Origin: Candidatus Micrarchaeia archaeon
GTDB taxonomy: Archaea > Micrarchaeota > Micrarchaeia > Anstonellales > J096
Reading direction: 5' to 3'
Length of the DNA: 64,000 bases
NCBI GenBank assembly: GCA_041500865.1
Contig: JBGQMY010000002.1
Span: 1,982-65,981 of the forward strand
Shown: positions 4,399 through 53,487 of the stretch, piece by piece
How positions within the stretch are numbered: the first letter of the stretch is position 1
Layout: every line of letters begins with the position of its first letter
The notes under the pieces: generated by a model
Told to the model about the DNA's origin: nothing
The model's database searches: none
What the model saw: the letters and a program-made list of their open reading frames with translations, nothing else
Program-made: the position numbers and the translations under genes

Positions 4399-5025
4399 TT
4401 GGGCATGGACGAGGCAATGGCCGTTTTCTGGAAGATAGCGGCGGTGCTGATTGCGCTTAACGCGGTTATCCTGCTGCCGCTTGTTGCCGTGCCGATGTAC
4501 GTTGACCATAAGACGATAGCGACCGCGGTCTTCATGCTTTATTCGCCCACGTGCCACCAGTACATCTCAAGGAGCTACTGCTTCTTCGAGTCAAACGCAA
4601 GCTGGGGCTTCGGGGACTGCATAATCAACGGGTCGCACCCCCTGGTCATAACCGAATTCACGCCTTCAAAGATGAACTACAGCGGGGCTTTCGTTTTCAG
4701 CAGGGGCGAGATAGGCGTCAACAGGGCCGACGTTGTCTTTTACGATGACAGGATAGGGTTCAAGATGCCTGTCTGCGCAAGGGACTTCGGCATTTACCTG
4801 GGCTCCTTGCTCGGCATGGCGGCTTTCCTGCTTTTCAGGGACAGGATTAGGCCCATGGGCCTGCCTGTGTATATACTGTTCCTTGTGCCCTTGGTTATTG
4901 ACGGGTTCATGCAGCTCCTTACCGGCTATGAGTCAACCAACATGATAAGGCTTGTTACGGGATTAATTGCAGGCGGCGCGTCAGGGGTGGCGCTGCTCAG
5001 CATCATTTATCCAAGAAAGAAATAG
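4399..5025 (+). CDS. DUF2085-like polytopic membrane protein.
   Basis: CHQ...RSY motif typical of DUF2085 and several TM helices. TTTTAAAC box 20-27 nt upstream. Confidence 0.5.
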   Translation: MGMDEAMAVFWKIAAVLIALNAVILLPLVAVPMYVDHKTIATAVFMLYSPTCHQYISRSYCFFESNASWGFGDCIINGSHPLVITEFTPSKMNYSGAFVFSRGEIGVNRADVVFYDDRIGFKMPVCARDFGIYLGSLLGMAAFLLFRDRIRPMGLPVYILFLVPLVIDGFMQLLTGYESTNMIRLVTGLIAGGASGVALLSIIYPRKK

Positions 5026-5749
5026 CGCCAATGCACCCGCGGAAGTCTGAAAGGAACGGTTTTATGTTTTCTACTTCAATTATGTCTCCCAGCAGTTCGA
5101 TTGATTTTAGGAACTGCGCGGTTTGGATGCGCCCTTTGTTTTCGGCGTATTGCAAAGCCGTCCTTTTGCAATTGTCATTTATTGCAATCAGTTCCTTTGC
5201 GTTTCCGCCGGCTTTTGCGTATTCTTCTATCAGCAGGAGGCAGGCTTGGGTGTGCCCGTAGAATGCGGCGAGGTGCAGGGCAGTATAGCCTTCATTGTCC
5301 TTTGCGATTATGAGGTCCTTTGCATCCCCGCCGGCTTTTGCGTATTCCCTTATGAGCAGTTCGCAGGTTTCAATGTGCCCCTTCATTGCGGCCCAGTGCA
5401 GGGCTGTGTTGCCGTTTTTCTCCTTTGCGGCGATGAACTTATTTATGTTTCGGCCTGATTTTGTGTATTTTTCTATAATCAGGATGCAGGTTTCGGTGTG
5501 TCCGTAGCTTGCGGCATTATGCAAGGCAGTCCAACCATAACTATCCTTTGCGGCGATGCTTGCGCCGGTTTTTATGAGCCTCAATATCTTTGAGTTTTCG
5601 CCATCAGATGCGGCTTTGATGAGCAGATTGTCAAGCCTTCTTCCAATAAACAGCCTCTTTATCGGCTGCGCAGCCGATATCAGTACCTCTCTTGTGCGCT
5701 CCCAATGTCTTTGGGGTTTGTTTGCCTGCTGCTCTTGGCGCTGTGCCAT
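5003..5749 (-). CDS. Ankyrin-repeat protein. The likely start is MAQRQEQQANKPQ. C-terminus is ..FLSDFRGCIGAISFLDK.
   Basis: ANK repeats. The track start at 5767 is further upstream. The ATG at 5749 follows a TTTTAAAC box and a TTTGCCGCACAATA element shared with the 37867 paralog. Confidence 0.8.
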   Translation of the reverse strand: MAQRQEQQANKPQRHWERTREVLISAAQPIKRLFIGRRLDNLLIKAASDGENSKILRLIKTGASIAAKDSYGWTALHNAASYGHTETCILIIEKYTKSGRNINKFIAAKEKNGNTALHWAAMKGHIETCELLIREYAKAGGDAKDLIIAKDNEGYTALHLAAFYGHTQACLLLIEEYAKAGGNAKELIAINDNCKRTALQYAENKGRIQTAQFLKSIELLGDIIEVENIKPFLSDFRGCIGAISFLDK

Positions 5750-5769
5750 GCTGTTATTGTGCGGCAAAC

Positions 5770-5781
5770 GGTTTAAAACTT
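5770..5781. promoter_or_regulatory. Shared divergent TATA-like element (GGTTTAAAACTT) between the ankyrin gene (minus) and the malic enzyme gene (plus).
   Basis: A single TTTAAAA core lies 22-28 nt from both the ATG at 5749 (minus) and the ATG at 5800 (plus). Confidence 0.45.
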
Positions 5782-21470: not shown

Positions 21471-21629
21471 GGTTCGCTTTTGCCTGGCCTTGTTTTTAAA
21501 CATAGCGCCTAAGGAAACCGAGGTTCCCTTGAAGCATTTTTCCAAAAGGCTTCAGCGAAAAACGTTGGCCCAACCCCCCCTTCTTACTAAGCTGTTGCAT
21601 CTGGGGTATTTTTGCCAAACCACAAGATT

Positions 21630-22636: not shown

Positions 22637-22790
22637 TCAACCCTTGAATTTGTACTGCCTGCCGCTGCCGCCCCCTTCCCTCAGGAAGAAATAGTATATG
22701 GCGACTATTATGGCTGCTATCGCCACGATGGCCAATAGCGCCGCGGCCAGCACGCCGACCCAGTCAAGCGGCTTTGGCGGCTGCGCCTGT
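22637..22790 (-). other. C-terminal membrane anchor of the giant protein. TM helix plus basic tail, no PGF motif.
   Basis: LDWVGVLAAALLAIVAIAAIIVAIYYFFLREGGGSGRQYKFKG. Confidence 0.65.
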
Positions 22791-31700: not shown

Positions 31701-34700
31701 GCGCTGATGTTGAACGTGGCGTTGTCTTTCATGCTGCTCCTTGTCACGTTGGTTATGTTCGCAACCAATATGCCCTGTTGCTGGACATAGAGATTATACG
31801 TCCCGGCATCACCGTAAAGCTCATCGACCTCAACGTAGTACGTGGCGGTTTCCGGTGCCGTGAACCAGATTTCGCTGTTCCTGTTGATTGCGAATATTAT
31901 GTCATCGCTATATCCCAGTATTGTGCCGGTTGAGTTGTAAAGCTGCATCTGCGTGTCCGTGATTGAGATGGCCGTAAGGTTCTTGGTCCATATGAAATAT
32001 GTATATCCATTTATCGCGTTGAATTTCACGAAGTCTATATCCGTCGGGGTGTTGAACGTGTGCGTCTGCGGCACGCCGGTCGTATTTATCCAATTCGCGC
32101 TGGCGTTGTCGTTGTCCGGCTCGTATGCGTCCGGGCTCAATGGCGCTATGGTGAAGGTTGTCCTTGATGTCGCGTTGTTGCCAGGTTCCGGATATGCGAA
32201 GTCGTATGCAGTCACATTTAACCTGTAGTCGCCCTGGGTGAGCGTCGTTGTGTTGCGCAGGCACCTCAACGTTTCGCCGTTCGGGGCCAATGCGGTGCAG
32301 TTCGCGGTGTTGCTGGTGACGCTCCCGTTTGTCGCATTGTAAACGTATGTCGTTGCGTTTATTGATATCAATATCAGGCTGGGCGCAGTCCCTGTGCCGT
32401 TGACAGTGATGTTCATTATGAAAGACGTTATGTTGGTTGAATAGCCGTCTGCTGGCTTTACGAGGGTTATCACAGGGCTGACGTTCTCCGTGACATTGTA
32501 GCCTGAGAATCCGGAGACGTTGAACGTCAGCGTCCCCGCAACCGCGTAAGTGGCGCCAGAAAGCGAGCAGTTTGTGCCGAGTGTGCGGCATCCTGCATAT
32601 CCGGCAAGGGAGCATATGCCGTTGGAGGATGAATTTATTGAGCATGAGGTTCCGTTGACGTAGCAGTACCCGGTATGCAACTGGCACGTGCCAGTGATTG
32701 GATATGTGGAGCATTTTTGGGTTGTGGCATTGACCGAGCACGTTCCGCCGTTCAGGGTGCTGGAGTTGTAGGTTGTCCAGCTTGCCACATGGACAGAGGA
32801 CTGCTTTGGCGAATCGTCGGCGTATATGCCTGGCTGGGAAACGAACGGCAGGTTGTAGAGCCTCACTGTCGCGTTCGTGTCCAGCTCCACGAAATAGTCC
32901 GTGTCTATGAAAATCCTTGACTGCTCGAACGTGTCGGGCGCCCCTATGTCCACGGTTATCGCAGAGCCAAGGTTGCTGAGCTTGTCCGCGCCAGACCACG
33001 TGGAAATGTTGACGGAGGTGAGGTTTATCAGCGCTGCGCTTGAAAAGTTCGTGCTTGGGCTCAGGCCTCCGCTTGCGCAGGACTCGTTCATCTGTATGTC
33101 TATGATGAAGTTGACCCTGCTGAAGTCAAACACCTTGGTGAAGTTGGTCGTGAGGTTGCCGAAGCGGGTGCACGGGTTGCCAGTCATGTTTGGCACGCCT
33201 ATGTCCTGGAGTATGATTTCAACGGGAGTCATGTTCCATTGGCTGAATTCATCCGTGGCGATTACCCATACCATCCTCTGATTGACGGGGCCGGGCTGTG
33301 CGTACTGGCCTATGCTGCAAGAGCCGTTCCACAGGCCCGTGGCATGGTTGAAAGTCAAATTCAGGATGCCGCCGCAGGCGCTCGCATTGACGTCCGAGAA
33401 GTTAGCGACGACGGATGTGATGTTGCCCTCGCCGGTCGCGTTAACAGAAAGGTTGATTATGGCGTCGTATGGCGAGAAAAAGTTGTCAGGGTTGAGGATT
33501 TGGACGTCCGAGACCGGAAGCTGGCTGCTGAGGTTTGCCAAGACGCCCCATGCCATGGCATGGGCGTTGACATGGTCATCGGCCTCAAAGCCAATCCGGT
33601 ATTCGCCGTCCGGGTCTGCGCGCACAAGCGGGATGTTGGATGACGAATTTACCGGATAGATGGTTATGTTGGAGTTGTTGAACGGGACTTTCTGCGCTGT
33701 GCTCAGGTTGAGGTATATCCTCTGCGGCATGAATTTGGTCTGGTTGTTGGCATTTATGATGCTGGTGGTGCTGAGATTGCAGCCGTCCATGCCGCACCAT
33801 TGCTCGCTCGCTATGCCCAATAAGGTTGCATTCTGGCCGTTGGACATGGACGTATTGTAGATGAGCCACCAGTTGTAGGGCTTTGTGCAGTTGTTATCCT
33901 CCCCGCAGGAGAAAATGAAAGTGCCGTTGCAGTCCCAGGGCGCGGTGTCGTTGATTTTCAGGCAGCCTGGCACTGATGCAGTGGGGCTGTCGTTGCCAAG
34001 CGCGAGAAAGTAAAAATTGTAATAGGCCGAGACGTTCTCGCCATTGAGCGTGTAGGTCTCCTGGCTCCATGTCGTGTTGTAGGCGCCGCTGGCTGGAAAG
34101 TCCCAGTTGGTCCCCTGTGTCTCGTTGCCGGACTGGCCCCACCCGGTCACTACATAACTGTAGTTGTCCAGCACGAAGGGCGTGACGCTCCACAGATACT
34201 TGTCGGTGATGTTCGCCCTCAGGAACCACGTCCTATGATAATAGAGGGAATAATTAAGGTCCATCTTGGAAACCGAAGGCGGGCTGTTGTCCACCGTGAT
34301 GTTGGGAAGCATGTCATAGCCGTATCCGCCTGGTGAAGACGCATTGAGCACTAGCGAGTAGTTTTCGCACTCGCCGGCACAATTTAACGACGTGTCCCAT
34401 GAGCAGATAGGGGAAGGGTCCGTTTCATTGCTTACGGACGCTGTGCCGTTGCATATCGTTGCGTTGTAAGCGCCGTTCCTGTAGAGCGACAGCGCCCAGC
34501 TGGTCATGTTGGGGTCGTACGCTATTCCCTCGACATCCACAACGCCGCCCACGAACTGCATTATCACGCCGCTTATGTTGTCATAGTTCCCTGTTGGGTT
34601 GGTTATTTTGACATCTGGGTTGCCGCCGTTTTCGGATATGTAGACCGGAACTGTCGCGCTGACCGTGACATTGGCGACCGAACTGCCGTAAGATGCGTTT

Positions 34701-35827
34701 GATGATGCATTGAATAAATACTCATTATAGGCCACGACCTGTCCGATGCCGTTGCCGTATATCGCCTGGTAAGTCGTCATCCACGGAGTCAGGCCGCTGG
34801 CATCGGTTGTCGCGTTCCATGCCTGCGCCCCAAGGCCGTTTGTGGCTGTGACGTTCGCGGCATTTACAGGAGCCGTTCCGTTGGAGACGTTTGCGCGGAC
34901 ATACCAGCCGATTGTGAAGTTGCTGGCCGCAACAGAGCCAAGTTGGCCAAGGCTAAGGCCGCTGATGTTGATGAACGAGTTGTTGCTTGAGGACGTGTTT
35001 GAATAAACTTGCCATGTCGTTACGTTGGCGAGGGAAACGTTGGCAATAATGTTGCTTGTCGCATAAGTAAGATGGAAGGCATGCGTAACGTTTGATATTG
35101 AGCCTCCTGTCACGGCATTGCTGCTGTCCACGGAAAATTGGATGCCGTACGTAACTTTTGATATGTAGTTGCCGCTGACTGTGTTGCTATTTGAGTTGGT
35201 GTCAAGCGCTATGCCAATCGGCGACGTGTTATTGATGATGTTGTTGGCTATTAGGTTGCTCGAGGCGCCTGGAATGTAAATGCCGAGCGTTGTGCCTGAG
35301 ATGTTGTTGTTCGTTATGTTGTTGCTTGTTGAGCTGCCGCTGGAGACGTATATTCTTATGCCGTAGCCGTAATTGTATGGGTCGTTGACTGTGGTGTTCG
35401 CGATTGTGTTGCCGGTTATGGTGTTGTTGGCATTGGTGCCTGAAACATATATGTTGATGCCGCTCTGGCTCCTGGTTATGGTGTTGTTCTGGATGGTGCT
35501 GTTGGCCACGCCGCCTGACGTGCGGATGCCGTCGCTGAAGTTCCAGATGTTGCAGTTCTTTATTGTGACGTTGTTCTTGTCAGGGATATAGACGCCATAC
35601 CTTCCGTTATCGGGGGTGACGCCGATTATGGAATATCCGCCGCAGTCAATCACGATGTTGCTTGCATTCACATATACGCAAGCGGTGCCGGTTGAGGCAT
35701 TGGCGACCATGTCGCTTGACATCGTCAGGCTGGCATTGAGGCTTTCTGAGCAGTTCGTTGCGAAGGCCAGAGACGCAAAAACGAAAATCCACGCAATAGC
35801 GTAGCGTATGCTTAGATTACATTGCAT
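22637..35827 (-). CDS. Giant cell-surface protein of about 4,396 aa. It has a signal peptide, parallel beta-helix, subtilisin-like S8 peptidase, RCC1-like propeller, about 25 Ig-like repeats, a Gly14 linker and a C-terminal TM anchor.
   Basis: Single uninterrupted ORF. Strongly Asn/Thr/Ser-rich with hundreds of N-x-S/T sequons. The ATG at 35827 is preferred over the track start at 35860 because the TATA box overlaps 35851-35857 and the paralog starts with the same MQ.NL motif. Confidence 0.85.
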   Translation of the reverse strand: MQCNLSIRYAIAWIFVFASLAFATNCSESLNASLTMSSDMVANASTGTACVYVNASNIVIDCGGYSIIGVTPDNGRYGVYIPDKNNVTIKNCNIWNFSDGIRTSGGVANSTIQNNTITRSQSGINIYVSGTNANNTITGNTIANTTVNDPYNYGYGIRIYVSSGSSTSNNITNNNISGTTLGIYIPGASSNLIANNIINNTSPIGIALDTNSNSNTVSGNYISKVTYGIQFSVDSSNAVTGGSISNVTHAFHLTYATSNIIANVSLANVTTWQVYSNTSSSNNSFINISGLSLGQLGSVAASNFTIGWYVRANVSNGTAPVNAANVTATNGLGAQAWNATTDASGLTPWMTTYQAIYGNGIGQVVAYNEYLFNASSNASYGSSVANVTVSATVPVYISENGGNPDVKITNPTGNYDNISGVIMQFVGGVVDVEGIAYDPNMTSWALSLYRNGAYNATICNGTASVSNETDPSPICSWDTSLNCAGECENYSLVLNASSPGGYGYDMLPNITVDNSPPSVSKMDLNYSLYYHRTWFLRANITDKYLWSVTPFVLDNYSYVVTGWGQSGNETQGTNWDFPASGAYNTTWSQETYTLNGENVSAYYNFYFLALGNDSPTASVPGCLKINDTAPWDCNGTFIFSCGEDNNCTKPYNWWLIYNTSMSNGQNATLLGIASEQWCGMDGCNLSTTSIINANNQTKFMPQRIYLNLSTAQKVPFNNSNITIYPVNSSSNIPLVRADPDGEYRIGFEADDHVNAHAMAWGVLANLSSQLPVSDVQILNPDNFFSPYDAIINLSVNATGEGNITSVVANFSDVNASACGGILNLTFNHATGLWNGSCSIGQYAQPGPVNQRMVWVIATDEFSQWNMTPVEIILQDIGVPNMTGNPCTRFGNLTTNFTKVFDFSRVNFIIDIQMNESCASGGLSPSTNFSSAALINLTSVNISTWSGADKLSNLGSAITVDIGAPDTFEQSRIFIDTDYFVELDTNATVRLYNLPFVSQPGIYADDSPKQSSVHVASWTTYNSSTLNGGTCSVNATTQKCSTYPITGTCQLHTGYCYVNGTSCSINSSSNGICSLAGYAGCRTLGTNCSLSGATYAVAGTLTFNVSGFSGYNVTENVSPVITLVKPADGYSTNITSFIMNITVNGTGTAPSLILISINATTYVYNATNGSVTSNTANCTALAPNGETLRCLRNTTTLTQGDYRLNVTAYDFAYPEPGNNATSRTTFTIAPLSPDAYEPDNDNASANWINTTGVPQTHTFNTPTDIDFVKFNAINGYTYFIWTKNLTAISITDTQMQLYNSTGTILGYSDDIIFAINRNSEIWFTAPETATYYVEVDELYGDAGTYNLYVQQQGILVANITNVTRSSMKDNATFNISASVTCVGGPCGAVAAVLDPIMAGANETPKDILSAAKNGPVEVIVTLKEPAASLKTRENVYSVQSAVISTLSSGDFKVKYRYSTVNSFSGTATLAGIKSLMANPNVASVRIARTFHTMLDVSVPLINATELWNMSINGRNINGTGQTVCILDTGINYAHPDFGSCTLADIITSHNCSKIVGGYDFYNNDTNFIDDNGHGSHVSGIVGSIDSVYRGVAPGAKIAMVKVCDSTGDVCPEADIEAGIEWCINNASLYNISVISISIGGSDCNYGSCDGKVCDNDDAFTPYLYNARNSNISVVIASGNEHHGSGASDPFSDVPGIGSPACISTAISVGATDDSDAIAGFTNRDRTLDVLAPGVGIIATDFAGTHTPKQGTSMATPHVSGAIALINQFFVQSYGRMPAPVEVDSMLKTGGKPIVDTAGTLNYTYPRVNALGSTLDKGVVPTTVGARPFYTTSSNPSNLSCYSNMTQGKVCNATWKVYATGDNGTYSFFTIDVAYAADGSGELMEYGRFYSSTYNISIDNVAPALAFVSPTPNTSAYLNGSIAINVSSSENLQSCTLTMDAQRRASSNAPISVGTYQTCYVLSNGNSKCYGFNGNGEATNYTGGNAIAVAMGEYHTCYVLSNGNSVCYGSNTDGRSTNYTGGNAIAVSTEYKHTCYVLSNGNSVCYGDDSSNQSTSYTGGDAVAVSATDYDTCYLLSSGNSVCYGDANCLGYTPCVGSAGQATNYTGGDAIAVAAGQDHTCYVLSSGNSVCYGYDSGNGETTSYTGGDAIAVSASNLDTCYLLSNGNSTCYGFNGNGPGEATNYTGGKAIALSAGVFHTCYLLSNGNSTCYGDNTYGMSANYILGNIRIPALPSSYAMQIHNSDGNTTANYTLASLSDGTHVYFANCSDLAGNPNATGVRNVIVDTTNPAISIVSPSQAYYANGTNMLINISASDANLDTVRFYNGTGTANTTYAGPVTLNYTDGVYNMTAWANDTVGRTNSTNRTFIVDTINPAITFTTPTPNSSAYSLNAYVAINISSSDTNFANATIRLYNATGGLRNSTFSSSPGSVFVNYTNLSDGLYYFNATVYDLAGLANKTETRNITIDATAPSITIISPTSKLYNNASILVNISVTDSDNSTWFFNGTANETYAVGTPVTRTFQQGANTLTVWSNDLIGHLSTASVNFSVDSIPPNITLNAPAAGGFSNTINVTLSFTPDDNVDTSITCKIYINGTLNATAAVSNASQYNLTRNFSNALRTWYVNCTDDANNSAVSETRNFTVDTIKPTIIFKSPTENSSAYLNRDSALVNVTASDANFRNVTIFFYNSTGLYFNTSGTLTNLFANETSLAEGIYYINATAFDSAGNLNKTETRNFTVDTVNPAIAFVAPTTNVSFSLNNYVLANVSVNDSNFANVTVRLYNSTGGLRNSTFSSSSATVFANYSNLSDGVYYFNATAYDRAGRINKTETRNVTLNTVAPTLAIISPTARYYTNATIWVNISATDADLNTTWFYNGTDNETYNGTPVTRTFQQGANTLTAWANDMVGHVSTASVNFTVDSVPPNITLNAPAAGSFSPTTNVTLSFTPDDNVDTSITCKIYINGTLNATVAVSNASQYNLTRNFSNALRTWYVNCTDDANNTVVSETRNFTVDTINPAIAIMSPSLAYYTNATILVNISATDANKDTVWFYNGTDNETYNGTPFARNFSDATYGMYAWVNDSAGRINSTNRTFTVDTINPEISFVAPTTNVTASLNNFIEINVSANDTNLANVTIRVYNSTGALVRNQTSTASPAFLNVTGLGDGTYFFNATVYDRAGRTNKTETRNVTLDAIAPSITIISPAATAYSNSTVLVSINVTDADLNTTWFYNGTANETYMVPVNRTFTEGANTLTVWSTDMVGHVSTASVNFTVDTTNPAIRFATPSTNSSSFANSIIANVSVNDSSFANVTVRLYNASGALRNQTWSNSSSFLANFSGLAEGTYYFNATAYDMVGRSNSTETRNVTVDRTVPQIWFASPTTNSSTGTPIPNIDVNLIMNDTNTMNGIITLYTPAGLYDTFNGSASGILVLAHTFNNLSDGVYYLNASVSDLAGNFNKTETRIIVIDTTAPGITLVAPENNSFPASSLVSLSFTAVDAISENMTCVVYVDGSAAGSVNAHNNTPASLSYNATETSHLWNVSCSDAANNIAVSGTDNFTVDTVSPTITIVSPLLSYYYNTSTILINISANDTNLDTVWFYTNGTNVIYTPPGAPFTLDFDDGIYNMTAWANDSAGTTVSSGRTFTVDTTAPIVAIQSPDNITIYTTANIDLNYTASDANLAYCRYMVDGGAAIGLAGCSNISSLLGISDGNHTITVIANDSAGNTANDTVFFAMNLTPESNAPNYTALEPSANINDTYRPNLSYLLNATWTDETGLDTVLVENNFSGSLVQSPFTSQAGSQFEYDTGHLAAGEYTYRWTANDTWSNLNDSMPNMSITVLMADPSAALAASPSWSGTWPYGTIVNCTGAAQVNMELYRNGTLVDSGMGFASDPQNLSAGTYEYVCNTSGNENYTNGSASNTLTIAQVSTALTFSSSAGWTPTWNNSNINVSCSGQAGLNVSIYRNGTFMASGLGYAESIANLPAGAYLFVCNISGTENYTGASASNNLTIAKAAPSISLTVNGVAGGITVNTGATVTFNGTVTTPANGHIEIWLDSAFSRSGNGNIYNSTSWSATGTHTVKLVYNATENYSSSSLSRTVTVKTSGGGGGGGGGGGGGGAALPSMAISNYTSCNSDGTANVRVTVASSGTALSGVTVYINSDDRHTAYTSGYTFSNLASGTYVVYADKDGYDSASLTVSFSCAAAGGQQNQTAGNGTQGGMSRNQTSQIPYVSNGSTRYINVTLIDVGAEYAAYQVDSLTGTITVYVGENRTVDVNGDGSLNVSIMLNNVSGNNAFAVIGAMARAAAQQGGNATHPTNVTQNVSGANITCAADNGACKIDSDCCSGSCNMSAGLCAQAQPPKPLDWVGVLAAALLAIVAIAAIIVAIYYFFLREGGGSGRQYKFKG
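23487..23530 (-). repeat. Low-complexity tract encoding Gly14 (CCGCCTCC-type repeats).
   Basis: Direct reading. A slippage-prone homopolymeric codon run in the linker before the last three Ig-like domains. Confidence 0.8.
23560..29100 (-). repeat. Intragenic tandem array of about 25 Ig-like (CARDB/PKD-like) roughly 100-aa domains. Several units are near-identical at the DNA level (approximate).
   Basis: Recurrent motifs NFTVDT(I/V)NPAI and TETRN(V/I)T(L/V)D. Segment 26.9-27.2 kb nearly duplicates 28.07-28.3 kb. Confidence 0.7.
29150..29980 (-). other. RCC1-like beta-propeller repeats in the giant protein (approximate).
   Basis: About 7 tandem units with period about 50 aa: HTCYVLSNGNSVCYG..N..G..T.YTGG.AIAV. 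The nucleotide-level repeats are visible. Confidence 0.6.
30500..31320 (-). other. Subtilisin-like (S8) serine peptidase domain of the giant protein (approximate).
   Basis: Catalytic Asp in VCILDTGIN (about 31258), His in DDNGHGSHVSGIV (about 31105), Ser in GTSMATPHVSGAIALI (about 30572). The D-H-S order is correct. Confidence 0.8.
35000..35760 (-). other. Right-handed parallel beta-helix (PbH1/NosD-like) repeat region of the giant protein (approximate).
   Basis: Repeats of the NNTITGNTIANTT / NNITNNNISGTTLGIYI type. Confidence 0.55.
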
Positions 35828-35848
35828 GGATGGGCTTTGGCTGCGCGC

Positions 35849-35873
35849 CTTTTTAAACATTAATGACGTTGGG
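35849..35873 (-). promoter_or_regulatory. Promoter of the giant gene. The TTTAAAAAG TATA element (minus sense) is 24-30 nt upstream of the ATG at 35827. The block is conserved with 37342-37363.
   Basis: Plus-strand CTTTTTAAACATTAATGACGTTG is 22/23 identical to the block upstream of the 458-aa gene. Confidence 0.6.
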
Positions 35874-37399: not shown

Positions 37400-37867
37400 T
37401 CATCCGGCAACGCACTCGCTGAAGGATACTATGAATGAGTTGGATGCTTCCTTTCTCATCAGATCATACAGTAATGGCATGGATTCTAGGATATTTCTGA
37501 TTTTGTCGTGCCTTGATTGCGAGGCCATGCTTAATGGGGTCCAGCCGTCATTGTTCTTTGCCTCGATGCTTGCTCCTTTTCCGAGCAGCAAGGCGCAGGT
37601 TTGGGTGTGTCCGTTCCTTGCGGCATGCATGAGCGGAGTCATGCCGCTGCCGCCTTTTGCCTCTATGCTTGCGCCAAGCTTCAGCAGCGTTTCAATGCCT
37701 GTATTGTCGCCGCTCTCTGCGGATTCCAGCAGTTCATTGTTGAGCCGCCTTTGCCCTTCTGCCGATAATGCCGGATTCTTCAATGCCGGCTTTTCGCTGG
37801 GCATGATGTCTGCTTTCAATTTAACTGGTTCTGTTGCCGGATTGTTTTGGAGCGTCTTTTCCTGCAT
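37400..37867 (-). CDS. Ankyrin-repeat protein. Likely start MQEKTLQNNP. C-terminal tail ..FIVSFSECVAG.
   Basis: ANK repeats. The track start at 38020 is upstream. The ATG at 37867 is preceded by TTTGCCGCACAATA (shared with the 5749 paralog) and a TTTTTAATT box. Confidence 0.75.
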   Translation of the reverse strand: MQEKTLQNNPATEPVKLKADIMPSEKPALKNPALSAEGQRRLNNELLESAESGDNTGIETLLKLGASIEAKGGSGMTPLMHAARNGHTQTCALLLGKGASIEAKNNDGWTPLSMASQSRHDKIRNILESMPLLYDLMRKEASNSFIVSFSECVAG

Positions 37868-38090
37868 GTATCTATTGTGCGGCAAAGCAATTAAAAACAG
37901 CGCGCAGCGCCCTAAATGCCTTCTTTTGAACCCAAGGGCCTTTTCTTTCCCCAAGTGCTTTCTTTTTCCAATGCGCATCAGCGCCAAAAGCAGGGGGGCG
38001 GGAGGAGCTTGGAACTGCACAGTTTCGTGGGCCGTCTTTTATGCCAAAGGCAAAACAATGTGGGTATTGCCTGCTGGCCCACGACACTGT

Positions 38091-43399: not shown

Positions 43400-44900
43400 A
43401 TTCTTTTAATGGTTTTTATATCATTTAAAAGGGCAAGGTTTATAAAGTGACATCCTCCCAGCACTCTCTAAAGTGCTTGGGTTCCAGCCTCTATTTCAAG
43501 GCGTTTAGTTCCTGCTTCAGCGAAATGTCTTGCAGTTTCATTGCAGAAACCACAGAGGGCATATCTCCACAGGCGTGACTTTCCGCCAGTCCGGCGGTAG
43601 CTCGCTTGAGTATGTTCATTGCCGCGTTCACGTCCCTGTCCTCTGAATATCCGCAATTGAGGCATTTATATGTCCTTACCCCCAATGGCATCTCCTGGAC
43701 GTGCCCGCACTTATTGCATTCCCTTGACGTATTCTCTGGATTCACCTCTATTAGCTCGCAACCAGCGCTTCGAGCCTTGTATGCGAGCATTCCCCTGTAC
43801 GTGCTCCAGCCTGCGTCCGATATCGACTTCGCAAGGCAATGGTTCTTCACCATGTTCTTGACCTTTAGTTTTTCGACCGCTATCTTTCCGTATGAGTTGA
43901 CCTGCTTCCTTGAAAGCTTGTGAAGAAAGTCAAACTTCTGGTTGACGATTCTCTCTTCCAATCTCGCTTTTCTCCGTCTTGCTCTTCTTCTGTTCCTGCT
44001 GTTTGGCTTTTTTCTTGAGACCCTGCGGCTAAGCAGTTTGAGCCTTTTCTCTGATTTCCTTAAGAACTTAGGAGGATTTATCTTTTCGCCATTTGAAAGG
44101 GTTGCGAAACTTGTCAAACCAACGTCTATGCCTATCGCTTCCTTGTTATTGCTTTCAAACGCCTTTTCAGGCACTTCGTTTGAGAATCCGACATACCACT
44201 TTCTTGATGGATACTGTTTTATGACGCATGTTTTTATCGTGCCTTTCGGCGGTCTGTGCATAACGATTGGTATGTTTCCTATGTTTGAGAGATGAAGCCT
44301 TTTGCTGTTTTTGAACTTGAATCCTGACTGGGGATATGTTAGAGAACATGCATGCTTCTTTATCCTTGGAAATCCGACCTTTATCCTTTTTCCTGCTTTC
44401 TTCCCTTTAACGCGCCTGAAGAACGCCTTGTACGAGTCTCCCAACCTCTTTGATACATTCTGTGCTACTTGGGAATAAAGTTCCTGGAATTGCGGCTGCT
44501 CCCTCTTTAACTGTATGATATGCTTGTTCATATCAATCTCCGAAAGCGTTTTCCCTGTTTCCTTGTAATACGACTTTGACTTTTCAAAAAGTAGGTTATA
44601 CAGTTCCTTTGCCAGCTGCATCTGCCTGTTTAAGCGGAAAACCTGTTTCCCAGACGGATATATTCTATACTTATATCCTAGCATGCTTGCATCTTTCTGG
44701 CCTCGTTTATAAACGTGGGCAGACCTTATTGCCAGAACCCTATTTGTGCACTTTTCATCCCGCTTTTGGAAGGCATAGACATTCTTAGTGTACCGAAAAA
44801 CCGAGTTTTGTTGTGACAATGACGATAAGTCAATTCATTCCCGGGTTAAAACCCAGGAATTTCTTGTCCAGCATGTTTAAAAATATTTCTCTCTAACTTC
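43400..44900 (-). mobile_element. Solo IS200/IS605-family (IS1341/ISC-type) element carrying only tnpB. The ends are approximate.
   Basis: tnpB ORF with no tnpA (Y1 transposase) nearby. Hairpins at both flanks (43457-43481 and 44833-44861). Inserted between tbp and rpl21e. Confidence 0.5.
43491..44684 (-). CDS. tnpB: TnpB (OrfB) RNA-guided nuclease/transposase accessory protein of the IS200/IS605 family.
   Basis: N-terminal YKYRIYPSGKQ, RuvC-like core, C-terminal zinc finger CNKCGHVQEMPLGVRTYKCLNCGYSEDRDVNAAMNI. The track start at 44819 is a TTG. The first ATG (MLGYKYRIYP) is at 44684. Confidence 0.85.
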   Translation of the reverse strand: MLGYKYRIYPSGKQVFRLNRQMQLAKELYNLLFEKSKSYYKETGKTLSEIDMNKHIIQLKREQPQFQELYSQVAQNVSKRLGDSYKAFFRRVKGKKAGKRIKVGFPRIKKHACSLTYPQSGFKFKNSKRLHLSNIGNIPIVMHRPPKGTIKTCVIKQYPSRKWYVGFSNEVPEKAFESNNKEAIGIDVGLTSFATLSNGEKINPPKFLRKSEKRLKLLSRRVSRKKPNSRNRRRARRRKARLEERIVNQKFDFLHKLSRKQVNSYGKIAVEKLKVKNMVKNHCLAKSISDAGWSTYRGMLAYKARSAGCELIEVNPENTSRECNKCGHVQEMPLGVRTYKCLNCGYSEDRDVNAAMNILKRATAGLAESHACGDMPSVVSAMKLQDISLKQELNALK

Positions 44901-45217: not shown

Positions 45218-45528
45218 TTATGGAAAAGAAGGGCGAAAAACCCGTAACGTCGGCAGAGGTTGCCTCGCACGTTGAAAAAGAGCTGTCTGGCGAGCCGACG
45301 TACATGGAGGACATGGTCATAAAGCACGGAAAGGAGATGCTGCCGCGCAAGACCGCGAATGAGAAGGCAGGGGAGCTTGGGGCGCTCGTGGGCGCAAAGG
45401 CCGCAGTGAAGATAGCGGACGTCAATCCGATTTCCGTTGAGACGGTCAAGGCAATACTGGCCGGCATCGGCGAGAAGGCGGACGAGAAGACGCTGGAAAA
45501 GATAATGGGCATAATGAGAGGCAAGTAA
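45214..45528 (+). CDS. rpoF: Probable RNA polymerase subunit Rpo4/F (RpoF).
   Basis: About 100-aa acidic helical protein in the conserved archaeal rpl21e-rpoF-DUF655 neighbourhood. Its start overlaps the rpl21e stop by 4 nt. The sequence alone is weak evidence. Confidence 0.45.
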   Translation: MIMEKKGEKPVTSAEVASHVEKELSGEPTYMEDMVIKHGKEMLPRKTANEKAGELGALVGAKAAVKIADVNPISVETVKAILAGIGEKADEKTLEKIMGIMRGK

Positions 45529-45529
45529 A

Positions 45530-46081
45530 ATGGAAGAGTACGCCTTCGTGATAGACTACATACCGTACGGGGACAGGAGCTCAGGCTCGTCCGTAGTCCA
45601 GCTCGTGGGCGAAAAGTTCTTTGTCCTGCTTGACGCGGTCGTCAAGGAAAACGTGCCCATAGCGGTGGGCGACAAGGTCTACGTGGGCAAGGACCTGGAC
45701 AAAAGGGACAAGATAAAGAAGATAAGGGAAAGGATATTCCACGACCGGCTGACTGTTTCCGCGACCCAGAACATGGTTGATGTCTTGAAGAGGATGGTGC
45801 TTGCCGACAGCGCGAAATACGTCGATTTCATAAACCACTGCGGACCGATATCCATAAGGGTGCACCAGCTCGAGCTGATACCCGGCATAGGCAAGAAGAA
45901 CATAAAGCTCATACTTGAGGAAAGGGAGAAGAAGCCGTTCGAGTCTTTTGACGACATAAGGGTGCGGGTGCACTCATGGCTTGACCCGGTCGGAAGCATA
46001 GCGGAAAGGATAAGGAACGAGATAATCGGCAGCGAGAGGTACAACCTCTTCGTGACGCAGCCGCCGAAGGAAGCAATCTGA
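45530..46081 (+). CDS. DUF655-family conserved archaeal protein (OB-like plus HhH, putative RNA/DNA binding).
   Basis: HhH motif LIPGIGKKNIKLILEER. Position after rpl21e-rpoF as in many archaea. Confidence 0.55.
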   Translation: MEEYAFVIDYIPYGDRSSGSSVVQLVGEKFFVLLDAVVKENVPIAVGDKVYVGKDLDKRDKIKKIRERIFHDRLTVSATQNMVDVLKRMVLADSAKYVDFINHCGPISIRVHQLELIPGIGKKNIKLILEEREKKPFESFDDIRVRVHSWLDPVGSIAERIRNEIIGSERYNLFVTQPPKEAI

Positions 46082-46112
46082 TTTTTAAACACTTATTCAC
46101 ACAGTAAGCGCA
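46053..46112 (+). repeat. Copy 1 of a roughly 60-bp direct repeat (3' end of the DUF655 gene plus the TTTTTAAACA promoter plus the ankyrin ATG).
   Basis: GTGACGCAGCCGCCGAAGGAAGCAATCTGATTTTTAAACACTTATTCACACAGTAAGCGCATGG. Confidence 0.8.
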
Positions 46113-46732
46113 TGGTCCAAAAAGAAATGCCAGAAAAGGGGAAACTGGTTTTAGGCGCAAGTAAAAAGCCCGCCGCGAAGGCAGGAAAACCGGCTTACAA
46201 AGCGGATATCCTGCCAAGCGGAAAAATGGCGTTATCCAAGAAAGAGCAGAAACGGTTCGATGACAATCTCCGGAATGCCGTCATATATGAAAACGTTTTT
46301 GGTGTATTGCGGTTCATCAAGTCAGGCGCAGACATGAATGCAGGGGACGACTGTGGCCTGACGGCGCTCATGCTCGCCGCATCCAAAGGAAACGCCCAAA
46401 TCTGCAAACTGCTGGTTAAGAAGGGCGCGGATGTTGACGTGAGGGACAACACAAACCGGACGGCGCTCATGGTTGCCGCACAGCGGAAGCATGCCGACAT
46501 CTGCAGGCTGCTGGTTGAAAATGGCGCTGAGGTGCTGGCAAGGGACTGGCATGAAAGAACTGTGCTGCATTATGCTGCAGCAGGAAGGCTAAGCGGCATA
46601 TGCACGCTGCTGATCAAGAAAGGCGCGGACGTGAATGCAACGGACAGGGATAAGAGGACCGCGCTCGATATCGCCCTAGAATCCGGCCACACGGAAATCG
46701 CCGACCTTCTGCAAAAGAAGATGAAAAAGTGA
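46112..46732 (+). CDS. Ankyrin-repeat protein with Lys-rich leader and no C-terminal FREC tail.
   Basis: ANK repeats. TTTTTAAACA box 28 nt upstream. Confidence 0.8.
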   Translation: MVQKEMPEKGKLVLGASKKPAAKAGKPAYKADILPSGKMALSKKEQKRFDDNLRNAVIYENVFGVLRFIKSGADMNAGDDCGLTALMLAASKGNAQICKLLVKKGADVDVRDNTNRTALMVAAQRKHADICRLLVENGAEVLARDWHERTVLHYAAAGRLSGICTLLIKKGADVNATDRDKRTALDIALESGHTEIADLLQKKMKK

Positions 46733-46812
46733 GGCATATGCAGAGACTGCGGCGTACCTCAAGTCCTTGGAAACCAAGAAAGAATAGAAATGTCCGTTTT
46801 CAGGACATTTGT

Positions 46813-46872
46813 GACGCAGCCGCCGAAGGAAGCAATCTGATTTTTAAACACTTCTTCACACACTAGGCGCAT
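46813..46872 (+). repeat. Copy 2 of the roughly 60-bp direct repeat. It carries a relic of the last 10 codons of the DUF655 gene together with the promoter.
   Basis: TGTGACGCAGCCGCCGAAGGAAGCAATCTGATTTTTAAACACTTCTTCACACACTAGGCGCATGG, about 57/60 identical to 46053-46112. Confidence 0.8.
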
Positions 46873-47290
46873 GGCTCAGGAAACAAGGACGGCAAAAAAG
46901 AAACTGCTTTCATGCGCAAAGAAACCGGCGCATGAATTAGCGACAGAAGGGGCAAGGAAGACGCTCAGCGCGGATATGCAGGCACGGATAGAAAAATTGC
47001 TTGTTGGGCTGGTCGCACAGGGAGATAAGGACGAGCTGACTAATCAGATAGCAAGGCTGGAAAAGGCAGGCGTTGACGTAAAGCAGATAATAAACGCAAG
47101 CGACACGGACGGCAGGACTGCGCTGATGCATGCCGCAGCAGAGGGCCGTACCGAAACATGCAAACTGCTCATAAGCAAAGGCGCCGACATAAACAAAGGG
47201 GACAGTTTTGGCTGGACCGCGTCCATGGTTGCCGGACATTACGGGCGTAAGGAAACTGAGGCATACCTCAAGTCCGTTGAATCCAAGTAA
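46871..47290 (+). CDS. Short ankyrin-repeat protein (tandem paralog).
   Basis: ANK repeats DGRTALMHAAAEGRTETCKLLISKGADIN. Confidence 0.8.
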   Translation: MAQETRTAKKKLLSCAKKPAHELATEGARKTLSADMQARIEKLLVGLVAQGDKDELTNQIARLEKAGVDVKQIINASDTDGRTALMHAAAEGRTETCKLLISKGADINKGDSFGWTASMVAGHYGRKETEAYLKSVESK

Positions 47291-47349
47291 AGATGGCCTG
47301 GCAGCCGGGCCCACTCAGCTTTTTAATCCATTAAGCCCAATTGCTTTCA

Positions 47350-49626
47350 ATGCTCAAAACGCTAAGGCTTGCCAATTGGACATCCCACAGGAACAGCGCG
47401 ATATCCTTTGGCAAGGGGGCAAACATCTTCGTCGGCGTCATGGGCTCCGGAAAGTCCAGCGCGCTTGAGGCCATGTCCTTCGCGCTGTTTGGCGCCATCC
47501 CAGAGGGCAGCAGGCGCAAGGCCAAGCTGTCCGACCTGATAAGGTTCGGGGAGGACGCCGCCTCGGTTGAGCTTGAGATGGAGATAAACGGCAATGTTTA
47601 CCGCGTAATAAGGAGGATAAACCGCAAGGAAGGCTCGGAGGCGCAGCTTTACCGCGGGGACGTGCTGGTGGCGCAATCGCCGTCCACAGTCAACAGGCAG
47701 CTGGAAGGCCTGCTAGGCATGAACTACGACCTGTTTTCAACCATAATATATTCGGCGCAGAACAGGATTGACGCATTCATCAACCTGCCGCCAAAAGGCA
47801 GGAAGGAGGCCATTGACGAGCTGATAGGGCTGAACGGCATACTCAAGGTTGAGGACAATGCCAACAAAATCCTCAACAGGCTGAGGCTCATTGCAAAGGA
47901 AATAGCGCCGCTAATGCCGACTGAAACGGAAATGGGGAACAGGGAGAGGGAACTGTCGGCGCTAAAAGATTCGATTTCAAAATGGAAAGAGGAGCAGGAT
48001 AGGCTGGAAAAGGGGGCTTCGGAGGCAAAGGCAAGGCTTTCGGAAACGGCAAAGGCGTACGAGGCTGTTTCGCTCAAGAGAAAGGAGCACGAGGGCCTGA
48101 ACGCACGCATAAGCTCGTCAAAAGGCCGTTTGGGCGCGCTTGAATCGTCATACAACCCGTCGCTTGGCGCGGAAAAGGAAAGGGAACTGCTGGCCTCGAT
48201 TGAACTGCTGAAGAAAAGCAATGCTGAATTTGAGGCGCATGAGAAATCACTGCTCAAGGATTCAAACGCCATACGGGAAAGGATTGCAAACGCAAAGGCT
48301 GCGGATGAAAGGCGCAAGAAGGCGCAAGAAGACGTCTCAAGGCTTGACGCCCTGCTGGGTAAGCTGGGCAGCAAGGAAGATGCCTCAAAAGCCATTGCAT
48401 TGGCTGAGAAAGGCATAAGAGAGTCAAACGAGAGGATGGGCATGCTGGGCGCGGCGGCAAGGGACGCAAGGCACGGGCTCATGGAGATAGGGGGTGCGGG
48501 AAGCAAGTGCCCGGTCTGCATGTCAGAGCTTTCAGGCGACGCAAAATCGCGCATAGAAAATGAATGGAAGGCAAAGCTGGCAGAATCGTCAAAACTGATG
48601 AAAGGGGAGGAATCAAGGCTGCTGGGCCTTTCAAAGGGGCTTGAAACGTACAGGGAAAGGCTCAAGAGGATTGACGCCTGCGCCGCAAAGCGCGAGGCCC
48701 TTGTTCCGCAGGCCGAGAACGTTCCGCATGACGCAGGCAAGGATGCCAACGCGCTTGACGTTGCCGAAAAGTCCATGGAGGAAAACCGCAAAAAAATCAG
48801 TGAAAACGTTTCAAGGTTGGCGGCAAGCGAAAGCTCGCTGAACGACGCCAGAAAGAACATCGCGCTGTCAAGGGAGATTGTGGCTACGCGGGCTGCGCTT
48901 TCGGAGCTTGAAAGGCGGATTTCTTCGCTTGGCTATTCCGAGGGCGATTACAGGAAGGCGGAAGACTGCTACAGAACCGCTTCCTCGGCTGCAGAAAGGG
49001 CAGGGGCCGGGCTGGAGAAGGTGAGGGCGGAAATCGCCATAAGCTCAAGGCTGAGAACCGACCTTGAGGCATTGCTGAAAAGGCATGCGTCCGAAAGGGA
49101 AAGATACGCCAGGATAGAGTCTGCACTGTCGGACGTCTCGCTCTTCAAGGAAACGCTCAACCGCATGCAGTTGATCTTAAGGAACAGCATCATCGGGGAC
49201 ATAAACGTCGGGATAAACGAGGTGTGGAGGTACGCGTACCCCTACAACGACTACGGGATGGTGAGGCTCATAGGCGACGGGGACTCGTACAACTTCGAGG
49301 TCTTCGCAAACGGCGAATGGAGGGACATCTCGCTTGTGGCAAGCGGGGGCGAGAAGACCATGTCCGCCATAGCGCTTCGCATAACGCTTGCCATGGTCCT
49401 TGCCCCGCAGCTGAGCTGGATTGTTCTGGACGAGCCGACGCACAACCTTGACGAGAACGGCATAGAGAAGCTTTCGTCCCTGATAAGGGAGAGGCTTCCG
49501 GGCCTCATAGAGCAATTCGTCATTGTCACGCATGACAACAGGCTCATGTCATCCGGGAACGGAAACGTGTTCCAGTTCCTGCGAGAGAAGAGCGGCAACG
49601 ACCCTACGTCAGTGGAAAAAGTCTGA
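47350..49626 (+). CDS. rad50: Rad50/SbcC-like SMC-family ATPase. Short for Rad50 at 758 aa.
   Basis: Walker A GVMGSGKSS, long coiled coil with CPVC zinc-hook at its apex, signature SGGEKT, Walker B ..WIVLDEPT, His-loop VIVTHD. The track start at 47341 is a TTG. The ATG is at 47350. Confidence 0.8.
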   Translation: MLKTLRLANWTSHRNSAISFGKGANIFVGVMGSGKSSALEAMSFALFGAIPEGSRRKAKLSDLIRFGEDAASVELEMEINGNVYRVIRRINRKEGSEAQLYRGDVLVAQSPSTVNRQLEGLLGMNYDLFSTIIYSAQNRIDAFINLPPKGRKEAIDELIGLNGILKVEDNANKILNRLRLIAKEIAPLMPTETEMGNRERELSALKDSISKWKEEQDRLEKGASEAKARLSETAKAYEAVSLKRKEHEGLNARISSSKGRLGALESSYNPSLGAEKERELLASIELLKKSNAEFEAHEKSLLKDSNAIRERIANAKAADERRKKAQEDVSRLDALLGKLGSKEDASKAIALAEKGIRESNERMGMLGAAARDARHGLMEIGGAGSKCPVCMSELSGDAKSRIENEWKAKLAESSKLMKGEESRLLGLSKGLETYRERLKRIDACAAKREALVPQAENVPHDAGKDANALDVAEKSMEENRKKISENVSRLAASESSLNDARKNIALSREIVATRAALSELERRISSLGYSEGDYRKAEDCYRTASSAAERAGAGLEKVRAEIAISSRLRTDLEALLKRHASERERYARIESALSDVSLFKETLNRMQLILRNSIIGDINVGINEVWRYAYPYNDYGMVRLIGDGDSYNFEVFANGEWRDISLVASGGEKTMSAIALRITLAMVLAPQLSWIVLDEPTHNLDENGIEKLSSLIRERLPGLIEQFVIVTHDNRLMSSGNGNVFQFLREKSGNDPTSVEKV

Positions 49627-51996: not shown

Positions 51997-52071
51997 TGCA
52001 TGGGTATCCCTGGATAGGCTTAAAACGGTTGCGCAACGGCTTTTTTAACCTCTTTTGTCCATAATGGAGGC

Positions 52072-52824
52072 ATGGCGCAAAGGCTCAGAGAGTCTAAGAT
52101 TAAAAAAGCAGCCAAACGGCCAGACCTGGCCAGCAAAAAGCTGCCGACTGAGGAAAGGAAGCCCAGCCAAAAGGAGCAGAATCGGCTTGATGCCAATCTC
52201 TTGATAGCGGCCGCGAATGGCTTGCTAGATGATGCCAGGAGGATGCTGAAGGCTGGGGCGAATATAGAGGCAAGGGACAAGAACGGATGGACCGCGCTTA
52301 TGTATGCTGCACAGCATGGGCACACCAAAACCTGCAAGCTGCTGCTTGAAAAGGGCGCAGGAATCAAAGTGCAGGAGCGGCTTGATGCCCGCCTCCTGAA
52401 AGCGGCAGGGGAAGGCAGGACAGGAAAAGTCGGAAGGCTTCTGAAGAAAGGCGCAAGCATCGAGGCGGGGGACAGCATCGGCTGGACCCCGCTCATGATG
52501 GCCGCGTATGGGAACAACATGGAAACCTGCGCGCTGCTGGTTGAAAAGGGCGCGGACGTCAACGCAAAAAGCAGGGAAAGCTGGAATGCGCTCATGCTGG
52601 CCGCGTGTTGGGGATATACGGAAATCTGCGCCTTCCTGCTGGAAAAGGGCGCAGACGTGAATGCAAGCGACTATGATGGCAAAACCCCGCTAATAGTTGC
52701 AAGGGAAAACGGAAAAACAGAAACAGCCGAACTCCTGAAGATTTATTCGATGGCAAAGATAATGGACAGGGAAACGGCGGTTACGTTCATTTCCAGCTTC
52801 CGCGAGTGCATAGGTGGTGCCTGA
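52072..52824 (+). CDS. Ankyrin-repeat protein with Lys-rich leader MAQRLRESKIKK.. and tail ..FISSFRECIGGA.
   Basis: 5-6 ANK repeats. GGAGG lies 3 nt before the ATG. Confidence 0.85.
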   Translation: MAQRLRESKIKKAAKRPDLASKKLPTEERKPSQKEQNRLDANLLIAAANGLLDDARRMLKAGANIEARDKNGWTALMYAAQHGHTKTCKLLLEKGAGIKVQERLDARLLKAAGEGRTGKVGRLLKKGASIEAGDSIGWTPLMMAAYGNNMETCALLVEKGADVNAKSRESWNALMLAACWGYTEICAFLLEKGADVNASDYDGKTPLIVARENGKTETAELLKIYSMAKIMDRETAVTFISSFRECIGGA

Positions 52825-53487
52825 ATGGCGCAAAAGCTCAGGGAGCCAAAAATCATCCATAAGATAAGGGAATTCTTCCATAAGCCTGAGCCTGACAATT
52901 CGGCAACGCTGCAGGAGCGGCTCAATGCCGACCTTTTGAAGGCTGCCGCAGGAGGCCAGACAAAGGAGGTTGAAACGCTGCTGGAAAAAGGCGCAGAATG
53001 GTGGGCGACGAGCGAAAGCGGCTTTACCGCGCTGATGTTTGCAGCAGGCAGGGGCCACGCAAGGGTCTGCGGGCTCCTGGTTGAACATGGCGCAAGCATT
53101 GACTCAAGGGCATTGAACGGCTCAACCCCGCTGATGCTTGCAGCAGGGAACGGGAAGTCGGAAACCTGCGCCTTGCTCATTGAAAAAGGCGCTGCCGTGA
53201 ACGCAGTCAACGAGGACAGCAGCAACGGCTGGACAGCGCTGCATTGGGCGGCAATCAACGGGCACACCAAGGCATGCGCAGTCCTGGTTGCAAAAGGGGC
53301 CAAGATAATGGGGGAAAATGGCTTGCATGAGATTCCTGAACTTTTGGCTGAGAGGCAGGACAAAAGGGAGACGGCCGCGTTCCTCAGGCCCATCAGGGAG
53401 ATGTGGTACTCGGCCGGCAACCTGGACGGCGCAAACGGCTTTGCCATATCCATATCGTTTTTCGGCAAATGCATCAAGGCGGCATAA
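52825..53487 (+). CDS. Ankyrin-repeat protein with tail variant ..FFGKCIKAA. The ATG overlaps the upstream stop (TGAATG), so the two are likely cotranscribed.
   Basis: ANK repeats. MAQKLREPKI leader. Confidence 0.8.
   Translation: MAQKLREPKIIHKIREFFHKPEPDNSATLQERLNADLLKAAAGGQTKEVETLLEKGAEWWATSESGFTALMFAAGRGHARVCGLLVEHGASIDSRALNGSTPLMLAAGNGKSETCALLIEKGAAVNAVNEDSSNGWTALHWAAINGHTKACAVLVAKGAKIMGENGLHEIPELLAERQDKRETAAFLRPIREMWYSAGNLDGANGFAISISFFGKCIKAA

Follow-up and report, generated by a model that had tools for sequence, protein, structure and literature searches.

The window analysed in this study is a stretch of 64,000 nucleotides (64 kb) from a Candidatus Micrarchaeia archaeon, in which two ankyrin-repeat genes, ank1 and ank2, lie in tandem between the gene for a DUF655 protein and rad50 (Table 1). 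Each of the two is preceded by nearly the same 60 to 68 bp, consisting of the 3′-end of DUF655, a promoter and a start codon, and this repeat is the scar of an old duplication. The window sequence was found in the Micrarchaeota (DPANN) metagenome-assembled genome GCA_041480205.1. Only one sequence version of the locus was found in public assemblies, two of which, with contigs of different length, are identical over positions 45530–47400 (1871 nt). Both proteins score above the Pfam cut-off of 27.3 bits for Ank_2, with 111.6 bits for ank1 and 45.1 bits for ank2.

Table 1. Features of the DUF655-rad50 locus, followed by the remaining ankyrin genes of the window (positions are those of the window)
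Feature	Position	Strand	Remarks
DUF655 gene, donor of the relic	45530–46081	+	183 amino acids (aa); Pfam PF04919, E = 3.8e-50; ends ...FVTQPPKEAI
Repeat copy A (source)	46049–46116	+	last 10 codons and stop of DUF655, promoter, ATGGT start of ank1
TATA box of ank1	46082–46089	+	TTTTTAAA; starts 30 nt 5′ of ATG (46112)
ank1	46112–46732	+	206 aa; ankyrin-repeat protein, 'KADILPSGK' subfamily; Pfam Ank/Ank_2
Relic of an array-type ankyrin C-terminal tail (second scar)	46743–46787	+	ETAAYLKSLETKKE, then stop; out of frame (+1 relative to ank1)
Perfect 8-bp hairpin	46788–46810	+	AAATGTCC-GTTTTCA-GGACATTT; dG -10.7 kcal/mol, z = -3.35
Relic of the DUF655 3′-end	46808–46840	+	non-coding; TTT GTG ACG CAG CCG CCG AAG GAA GCA ATC TGA; 32/33 identical to 46049–46081
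TATA box of ank2	46841–46848	+	starts 30 nt 5′ of ATG (46871)
ank2	46871–47290	+	139 aa; array-type ankyrin protein; Pfam
Recombination breakpoint interval within ank2	46899–46928	+	from informative sites
C-terminal tail of ank2	47252–47290	+	ETEAYLKSVESK, then stop; counterpart of the tail relic
TATA box of rad50	47320–47327	+	TTTTTAAT; 30 nt 5′ of ATG at 47350; right border of the array
Other ankyrin genes	64–528 (+), 1579–2517 (+), 5003–5749 (-), 37400–37978 (-), 52072–52824 (+), 52825–53487 (+)

A repeated promoter module with a relic of DUF655

The copies at 46049–46116 and 46808–46875 are offset by 759 nt and identical at 63 of 68 positions, including an exact core of 43 nt (46052–46094 and 46811–46853). 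A search of the window for this core, allowing up to three mismatches, yielded two matches and none in 100 shuffled sequences, and at the same tolerance the promoter module was found in the two copies only. The first-pass annotation had reported a near-perfect repeat of about 60 bp in front of the second ankyrin gene, and it was right in this respect, as 46053–46112 and 46812–46871 agree at 57 of 60 positions, which is beyond chance. The first copy had been located correctly, but the second one had been placed 1 nt too high (46813–46872), which corresponds to an offset of 760 nt at which only 14 of 60 positions match. With 93–95% the similarity is clearly above 80%, and it extends well past the TATA box.

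The left edge of the repeat is sharp, with 10 of 29 positions being identical just 5′ of it, and it lies inside DUF655. The reading frame of the second copy translates to FVTQPPKEAI followed by a stop codon, which is the C-terminus of DUF655. On the right side the similarity fades within the coding sequences (36 of 54 over the first 54 coding nt, 95 of 117 overall), and the identity falls from 100% to 67% within 60 nt. A left edge inside the upstream gene that leaves a non-coding fragment behind, combined with a matching right-hand end, identifies the repeat as a tandem-duplication scar which carried along the promoter as well as the last ten codons and the stop of DUF655, as had been proposed before. 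The breaking of two short-read Logan contigs at the module is the behaviour that is expected from a real repeat.

The right-hand end is represented by a second scar, the out-of-frame relic of an array-type ankyrin tail behind ank1, which is 82–83% identical to the true tail of ank2 (46743–46787 vs 47252–47290). It is followed by a perfect hairpin sitting exactly at the duplication junction, with its right arm overlapping the first codon of the DUF655 relic. This hairpin may act as a terminator or insulator. A scan for sigma-70 promoters and terminators, which is uninformative for an archaeon, recovered nothing but the junction hairpin, on the minus strand. A search of 45500–47500 against Rfam at E ≤ 1 gave no match, so that the 138-nt spacer does not correspond to a known RNA. 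At the same junction the related locus L089 (see below) has a different 5-bp stem (GGGCA/TGCCC, ~488–502), which is partly formed by substituted bases of the relic. Behind the TGA of ank1 (46730) 25 codons remain open in frame into the DUF655 relic and end at the TGA of the latter (...KKMKK, stop, GICRDCGVPQVLGNQERIEMSVFRTFVTQPPKEAI, stop). This readthrough frame (46730–46840) is probably a coincidence, as it would arise by chance in ~10% of cases; in the related locus L005 the first ankyrin open reading frame (ORF) does read through its relic, in another frame.

The TGA stop of DUF655 (46079–46081) directly abuts the TATA box of ank1, and for ank1, ank2 and rad50 alike the TATA-like octamer starts at position -30. 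Of 50 non-overlapping ORFs in the window, 22 have such an octamer beginning between -31 and -28 relative to their first ATG, with a sharp peak at -30/-29. Archaeal promoters consisting of a transcription factor B recognition element (BRE) and a TATA box are established to drive leaderless mRNAs. Measured against this known geometry, the positions of the octamers suggest that transcripts in the source genome are mostly leaderless and that intergenic spacers often measure merely ~30 nt. As this geometry indicates leaderless transcripts, the repeat module would constitute a complete minimal promoter together with a start codon, with transcription presumably starting at the ATG itself. All promoters of the array retain the module TTTTTAAACnCTTnTTcACACAaTAnGCGCATG. 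A looser version of the ank promoter with the pattern TTTTWAAC ... CAYAAT ... ATGGCNCA is found upstream of several ankyrin genes dispersed over the window (1549–1578, 5750–5780, 46082–46111 and 52042–52071), with a CAYAAT-like motif ~8–13 nt 5′ of the ATG, and the encoded proteins begin with a conserved MAQ(K/R). These shared looser promoters may reflect a family-wide co-regulation or a co-duplication of promoters with their genes.

The ankyrin array in related lineages

Loci of relatives were retrieved via homologs of DUF655 and of the ankyrin proteins; percentages in brackets give the protein identity of DUF655 to the window. Among these lineages the number of ankyrin genes between DUF655 and rad50 varies from zero to at least six, and the variation seen is exclusively variation between lineages. 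Like the window, L005 (79%) exhibits two ankyrin genes between DUF655 and rad50, with relic and promoter before the second one. L009 (91%) contains three, of which the second is preceded by a decayed relic and a degenerate TATA box and the third by a rad50-type promoter. In L008 and L089 (98%), which are treated as one genome, a long ortholog of ank1 is followed by a truncated gene, relic and promoter, four more genes and rad50, which amounts to at least six ankyrin genes. L090 (~93% at the nucleotide level) includes an extra gene of 316 aa behind the same 5′ module, the ank1 ortholog and a next gene, thus at least three ankyrin genes, and its gene order confirms the order from L008 to L089. 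No ankyrin gene is present in L004 (91%), where rad50 directly follows DUF655. In distant Micrarchaeota KsgA-like or other genes are found after DUF655. An exact-pattern scan for relic plus TATA box hit one locus (L008) among metagenome contigs and none among genome contigs, which means that the species representatives include neither the window genome nor its nearest kin.

The relic stands in homologous junction contexts in the window, L005, L089 and L009. It occurs in lineages separated from the window by up to 0.94 synonymous substitutions per synonymous site (dS) in DUF655, and in L009, of the 18 nt adjoining the TATA box, 7 deviate from the end of the window's DUF655. As the relic of L009 is decayed to this extent, the duplication scar is old and does not mark a recent gene duplication. 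Judged by the divergence of DUF655, L005 is the outgroup, and since it has the array, the empty state of L004 is most simply explained by a secondary loss. The junction in L004, where the stop codon of DUF655 is directly followed by the TATA box of rad50, is the product expected from recombination between relic copies.

The extra gene of L090 (382–2146) encodes an ankyrin protein with long repeats of the 'KAGGD' type, and it combines the DUF655-proximal promoter with first ~30 codons that are ank1-like. The ank1 ortholog following it has a new N-terminus and lacks a promoter of its own, with the stop codon and the next ATG being 1 nt apart. This arrangement is another exchange of gene bodies at the 5′ module.

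Recombination, probable homogenisation and the age of the duplication

It appears likely that the old scar serves both as leaderless promoter and as recombination substrate of a hypervariable ankyrin array, and that it is homogenised while the ankyrin bodies diverge. This explanation builds on the anatomy and age of the repeat, the mosaicism of ank2, the variable copy number and the geometry of the TATA boxes, all of which the data show. The repeat of 60–68 bp would be the 5′ boundary module of a tandem ankyrin array which a narrow clade of Micrarchaeota carries between DUF655 and rad50. As the ank promoter of this compact genome, with its probably leaderless mRNA, begins directly after the DUF655 stop, a duplication carrying a working promoter had to break inside DUF655; it would have copied the last ten codons of this gene and left them as a non-coding relic. 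Since this old event the array would have grown, shrunk and exchanged bodies by homologous recombination, for which the conserved 5′ module (promoter and ~first 17 codons), the ankyrin repeats and the 3′ tail are the presumed exchange points. The relic-bearing module would have been homogenised against the DUF655-proximal one by gene conversion or unequal recombination, probably helped by selection on its promoter-proximal part, with the ankyrin bodies diverging fast in the meantime.

Rough Nei-Gojobori (NG86) estimates of dN/dS (ω) amount to 0.03 for DUF655 (window vs L008) and 0.19 for rad50 (window vs L089), and to 0.45 for ank1 (window vs the L008 ortholog, L008_a1) and 0.59 for ank2 (window vs L089_f). 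The ankyrin bodies are under relaxed or diversifying selection. Recombination within the array is documented by ank2, which is a mosaic of two genes of L089, the relic-bearing gene (L089_c) and the last array gene of that relative (L089_f). From -46 to +54 the informative sites are 17 times L089_c-like and 4 times L089_f-like, whereas from +58 to +181 the ratio is 4 to 42 (Fisher p = 7.7e-9, Bonferroni 5e-7), so that the breakpoint is statistically supported.

Variants that are private to a genome and shared by its copies speak for concerted evolution. The promoters of L008_a1, the DUF655-proximal gene, and of the relic-bearing L089_c do not differ at any of 29 positions and have private variants in common, and both copies of L005 share a private AAAYAGTC. 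For the window this signal is weaker: the modules of ank1 and ank2 differ at 0 of 18 and 3 of 29 positions, and between the module of ank2 and that of L089_c, its positional ortholog, 5 of 29 differ. At a DUF655 dS of 0.34 between the window and L008, a neutral relic of 33 nt would be expected to have accumulated ~7 differences since the split of these two lineages, yet only 1 is observed (Poisson p ~0.009). This suggests that the relic copy of the window was refreshed recently, with the scar itself being old. From this pattern we infer short-tract gene conversion from the DUF655-proximal module, to which constraint on the promoter, namely on the 18 nt adjoining its TATA box, probably contributes.

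An explanation by selection alone would do without gene conversion and would explain the near-identity of the old scar by purifying selection that acts on an extended regulatory element common to both genes, composed of a transcription factor site, BRE and TATA box and an initiator. The 18 nt 5′ of the TATA box are indeed identical in ank1, ank2 and L089_c and only 1 nt off in L008_a1 and in the first array gene of L009 (L009_a1), the module TTTTTAAACnCTTnTTcACACAaTAnGCGCATG is kept by all array promoters, and several internal promoters weakly resemble the DUF655 tail next to their TATA box. This similarity is significant for L009_a3 (p < 0.0005), L089_d (0.006), L089_f (0.01) and L089_b (0.03), but not for two of the six promoters analysed, with the controls being negative; where the similarity is significant, the preceding ankyrin gene takes its final codons and its stop from the remnant. 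Nevertheless, the leftmost 15 nt of the relic have decayed in the relatives, with 6 of 15 positions being changed in L089_c, 6 of 15 in the second gene of L005 (L005_a2) and 8 of 15 in that of L009 (L009_a2), compared to 1 of 15 in the window, so this part of the relic is without general constraint. Moreover, selection alone does not fit with the private variants common to both copies within L005 and within L008/L089, nor with the decayed relic and degenerate TATA box of L009_a2, and the mosaic ank2 demonstrates that recombination does happen in the module. Taking both sides into account, selection as the only cause seems unlikely.

Several points weigh against homogenisation as the explanation of the repeat. 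Gene conversion is deduced from the pattern of variants, and for the window on its own the private-variant signal is weak, as there is no clearly window-specific promoter substitution shared by its two copies. The conservation of the 18 nt adjoining the TATA box in several lineages could be due to selection alone. The relatives are all represented by metagenome contigs, and repeat arrays are prone to assembly breaks and collapse. That L008 and L089 represent one genome is concluded from their origin in the same sample, their similar divergence from the window and their L090-like gene order. The left boundary of the relic differs among lineages (33 nt in the window and L089, 24 nt in L005 and L009), which we read as one origin followed by a 16-nt deletion, two origins being the alternative. 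Finally, the NG86 estimates are rough, having been obtained on short genes.

Alternatively, ank1 might be a foreign gene that entered between DUF655 and ank2 through a mobile or illegitimate event, with duplication of a target of ~68 bp. Such an event would fit with ank1 and ank2 belonging to different subfamilies, with the lack of ankyrin genes at the locus in L004 and with the additional 316-aa gene that follows this 5′ module in L090. The unit, however, contains no transposase or integrase gene, and no terminal inverted repeats flank ank1; the only TnpB gene is located 1.4 kb upstream and past L21e. A target-site duplication would not be expected to show the graded decay of identity, the out-of-frame tail relic shows that an array gene stood at this site before, and both the DUF655-ank1 arrangement and the relic are present in relatives. 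An insertion of ank1 is thus considered very improbable.

The first-pass annotation had furthermore regarded the repeat as evidence for a recent expansion of the ankyrin family by duplication of one whole promoter-plus-gene unit, which would make ank1 and ank2 young paralogs. A direct tandem repeat with a sharp left edge inside DUF655, and two units that begin with the same module and finish with similar tails, are what such a duplication would leave. This claim could not be upheld, since the gene bodies share only 39% aa identity in a global alignment (45% over the best 64 residues) and a dS of ~1.28 (NG86), compared to 63 of 68 identical positions in the module. The DNA shared by the two units is restricted to a 5′ module of 112 nt (82%) and a tail of 42 nt (83%). 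Each gene has its own orthologs in relatives, L008_a1 (68%) and a 270-aa protein in L090 (62%) for ank1, and L089_f (73%) and L005_a2 (61%) for ank2. The steep drop in identity at the right side of the repeat is also unlike a young copy, and the relic occurs in lineages at a DUF655 dS of 0.64–0.94, having decayed in L009. A recent whole-unit duplication is therefore extremely improbable. In blastp searches the best paralogs of ank1 in the window are 1579–2517 and 52072–52824 and not ank2, and this ranking rules out ank1 as the sister of ank2. A relic newly duplicated in the lineage of the window is ruled out by the relics at homologous junctions in L089, L005 and L009. Least of all does the repeat seem to be an assembly artefact, in which reads of different strains were chimerically joined or collapsed: its source is a metagenome-assembled genome and short-read contigs break at the module, but the locus is identical in two assemblies and the same architecture lies on single contigs of three other lineages, which leaves next to no probability for it.

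Two further observations concern the ankyrin bodies themselves. The orthology of ank1 with L008 and L090 is lost past position 46666, a point within a repeat's conserved TAL motif, for which reason the last half-repeat of ank1 is of different origin. Between ank2 (46871–47290) and L005 (1351–1779) dS is 0.33, while the flanking genes reach 0.94 (DUF655) and 1.74 (rad50). This low value may result from an exchange of array segments between lineages or from constraint on synonymous sites.

Function of the ankyrin genes and comparison with known systems

In total the window includes eight ankyrin genes (Table 1). Most of the dispersed ones end in a conserved C-terminal motif F-x-(S/D)-F-x-E-C-x-G (e.g., FYSAFRECTGA, FISSFRECIGGA and FIVSFSECVAG), which contains a cysteine, is vaguely CaaX-like, is missing in ank1 and ank2 and is also present in L009_a3 (FINDFEECTSQ). 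A second tandem pair is located downstream of polB (52072–53487); there the first gene ends with a TGA that is immediately followed by the ATG of the second, and the second gene lacks a separate TATA box. In L089 (7846–8937) this pair is shorter, with 182 and 180 aa instead of 250 and 220 aa in the window, so repeat number varies there too. Beyond the ankyrin genes, a TnpB/IS605 OrfB-type gene with a Cas12f1-like TNB domain (43491–44684, minus strand) lies between TBP and the L21e-RpoF-DUF655 operon. As TBP directly adjoins L21e in the relative L007, this gene is a lineage-specific insertion. Furthermore, two giant ORFs of 4407 aa (22637–35860) and 1524 aa (16971–21545) are present on the minus strand.

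Ankyrin repeats are modules for protein-protein interaction. A role of ank1 and ank2 in such interactions, including those with a host, is plausible. Ankyrin proteins are listed among the cell-cell interaction domains that are common in DPANN symbionts (PMC7414124). The searchable literature yielded no paper with ankyrin proteins of Micrarchaeota or DPANN as its main topic; a full-text search returned no title combining Micrarchaeota and ankyrin, and a single paper, the Undinarchaeota preprint, had one of the two terms in its abstract. With zero to at least six genes among close relatives and an ω of ~0.5, the hypervariable array is a candidate for a host-interaction locus of Micrarchaeota.

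Somewhat further reaching, and in our view rather doubtful, is the idea that the stretch between DUF655 and rad50 is, in a DPANN episymbiont, a variable locus of the cassette type, with the 5′ module and the 3′ tail as recombination handles. If this were true, ankyrin bodies could be exchanged, gained or lost behind leaderless promoters that are already in place, which would produce strain-level variation in host-contacting proteins. The same idea includes a re-use of the DUF655 relic, whose last codons would now form the final codons and the stop of the array genes preceding it. Irrespective of this, the locus illustrates how a gene family expands where promoters abut the previous gene: each duplicate carries a piece of the upstream gene along, and subsequent recombination then acts on the promoter module that was carried. 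As the mechanism, i.e., tandem duplication, unequal recombination and gene conversion, is already textbook knowledge, the value of the locus is descriptive rather than conceptual, and what is new is the organism group.

With archaeal leaderless promoters in general the ank promoters share the A/T-rich octamer 30 nt before the ATG. They differ from them in abutting or overlapping the upstream stop codon, with the presumed BRE region lying in the coding sequence of DUF655.

Tandem arrays of gene families are known to evolve by unequal crossing-over and gene conversion, with bacterial tufA/tufB and the opa genes of Neisseria as examples. As in these systems, segments of paralogs are more alike within a genome, mosaic genes with sharp breakpoints occur and the copy number is variable. 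In contrast to them, the homogenised tract mainly comprises a promoter, a non-coding relic and the first codons, with the bodies being strongly diverged, and the array belongs to an uncultured DPANN archaeon in which it is known from comparison between lineages. Expanded ankyrin families also occur in host-associated Wolbachia, Legionella and Rickettsiales and in sponge symbionts. The window resembles these in its high density of ankyrin genes (eight in 64 kb), the variable number of repeats, the elevated dN/dS and a symbiotic lifestyle, which in this case is inferred for the phylum. It differs from them in that neither a secretion signal nor a secretion system is linked to the ankyrin genes here.

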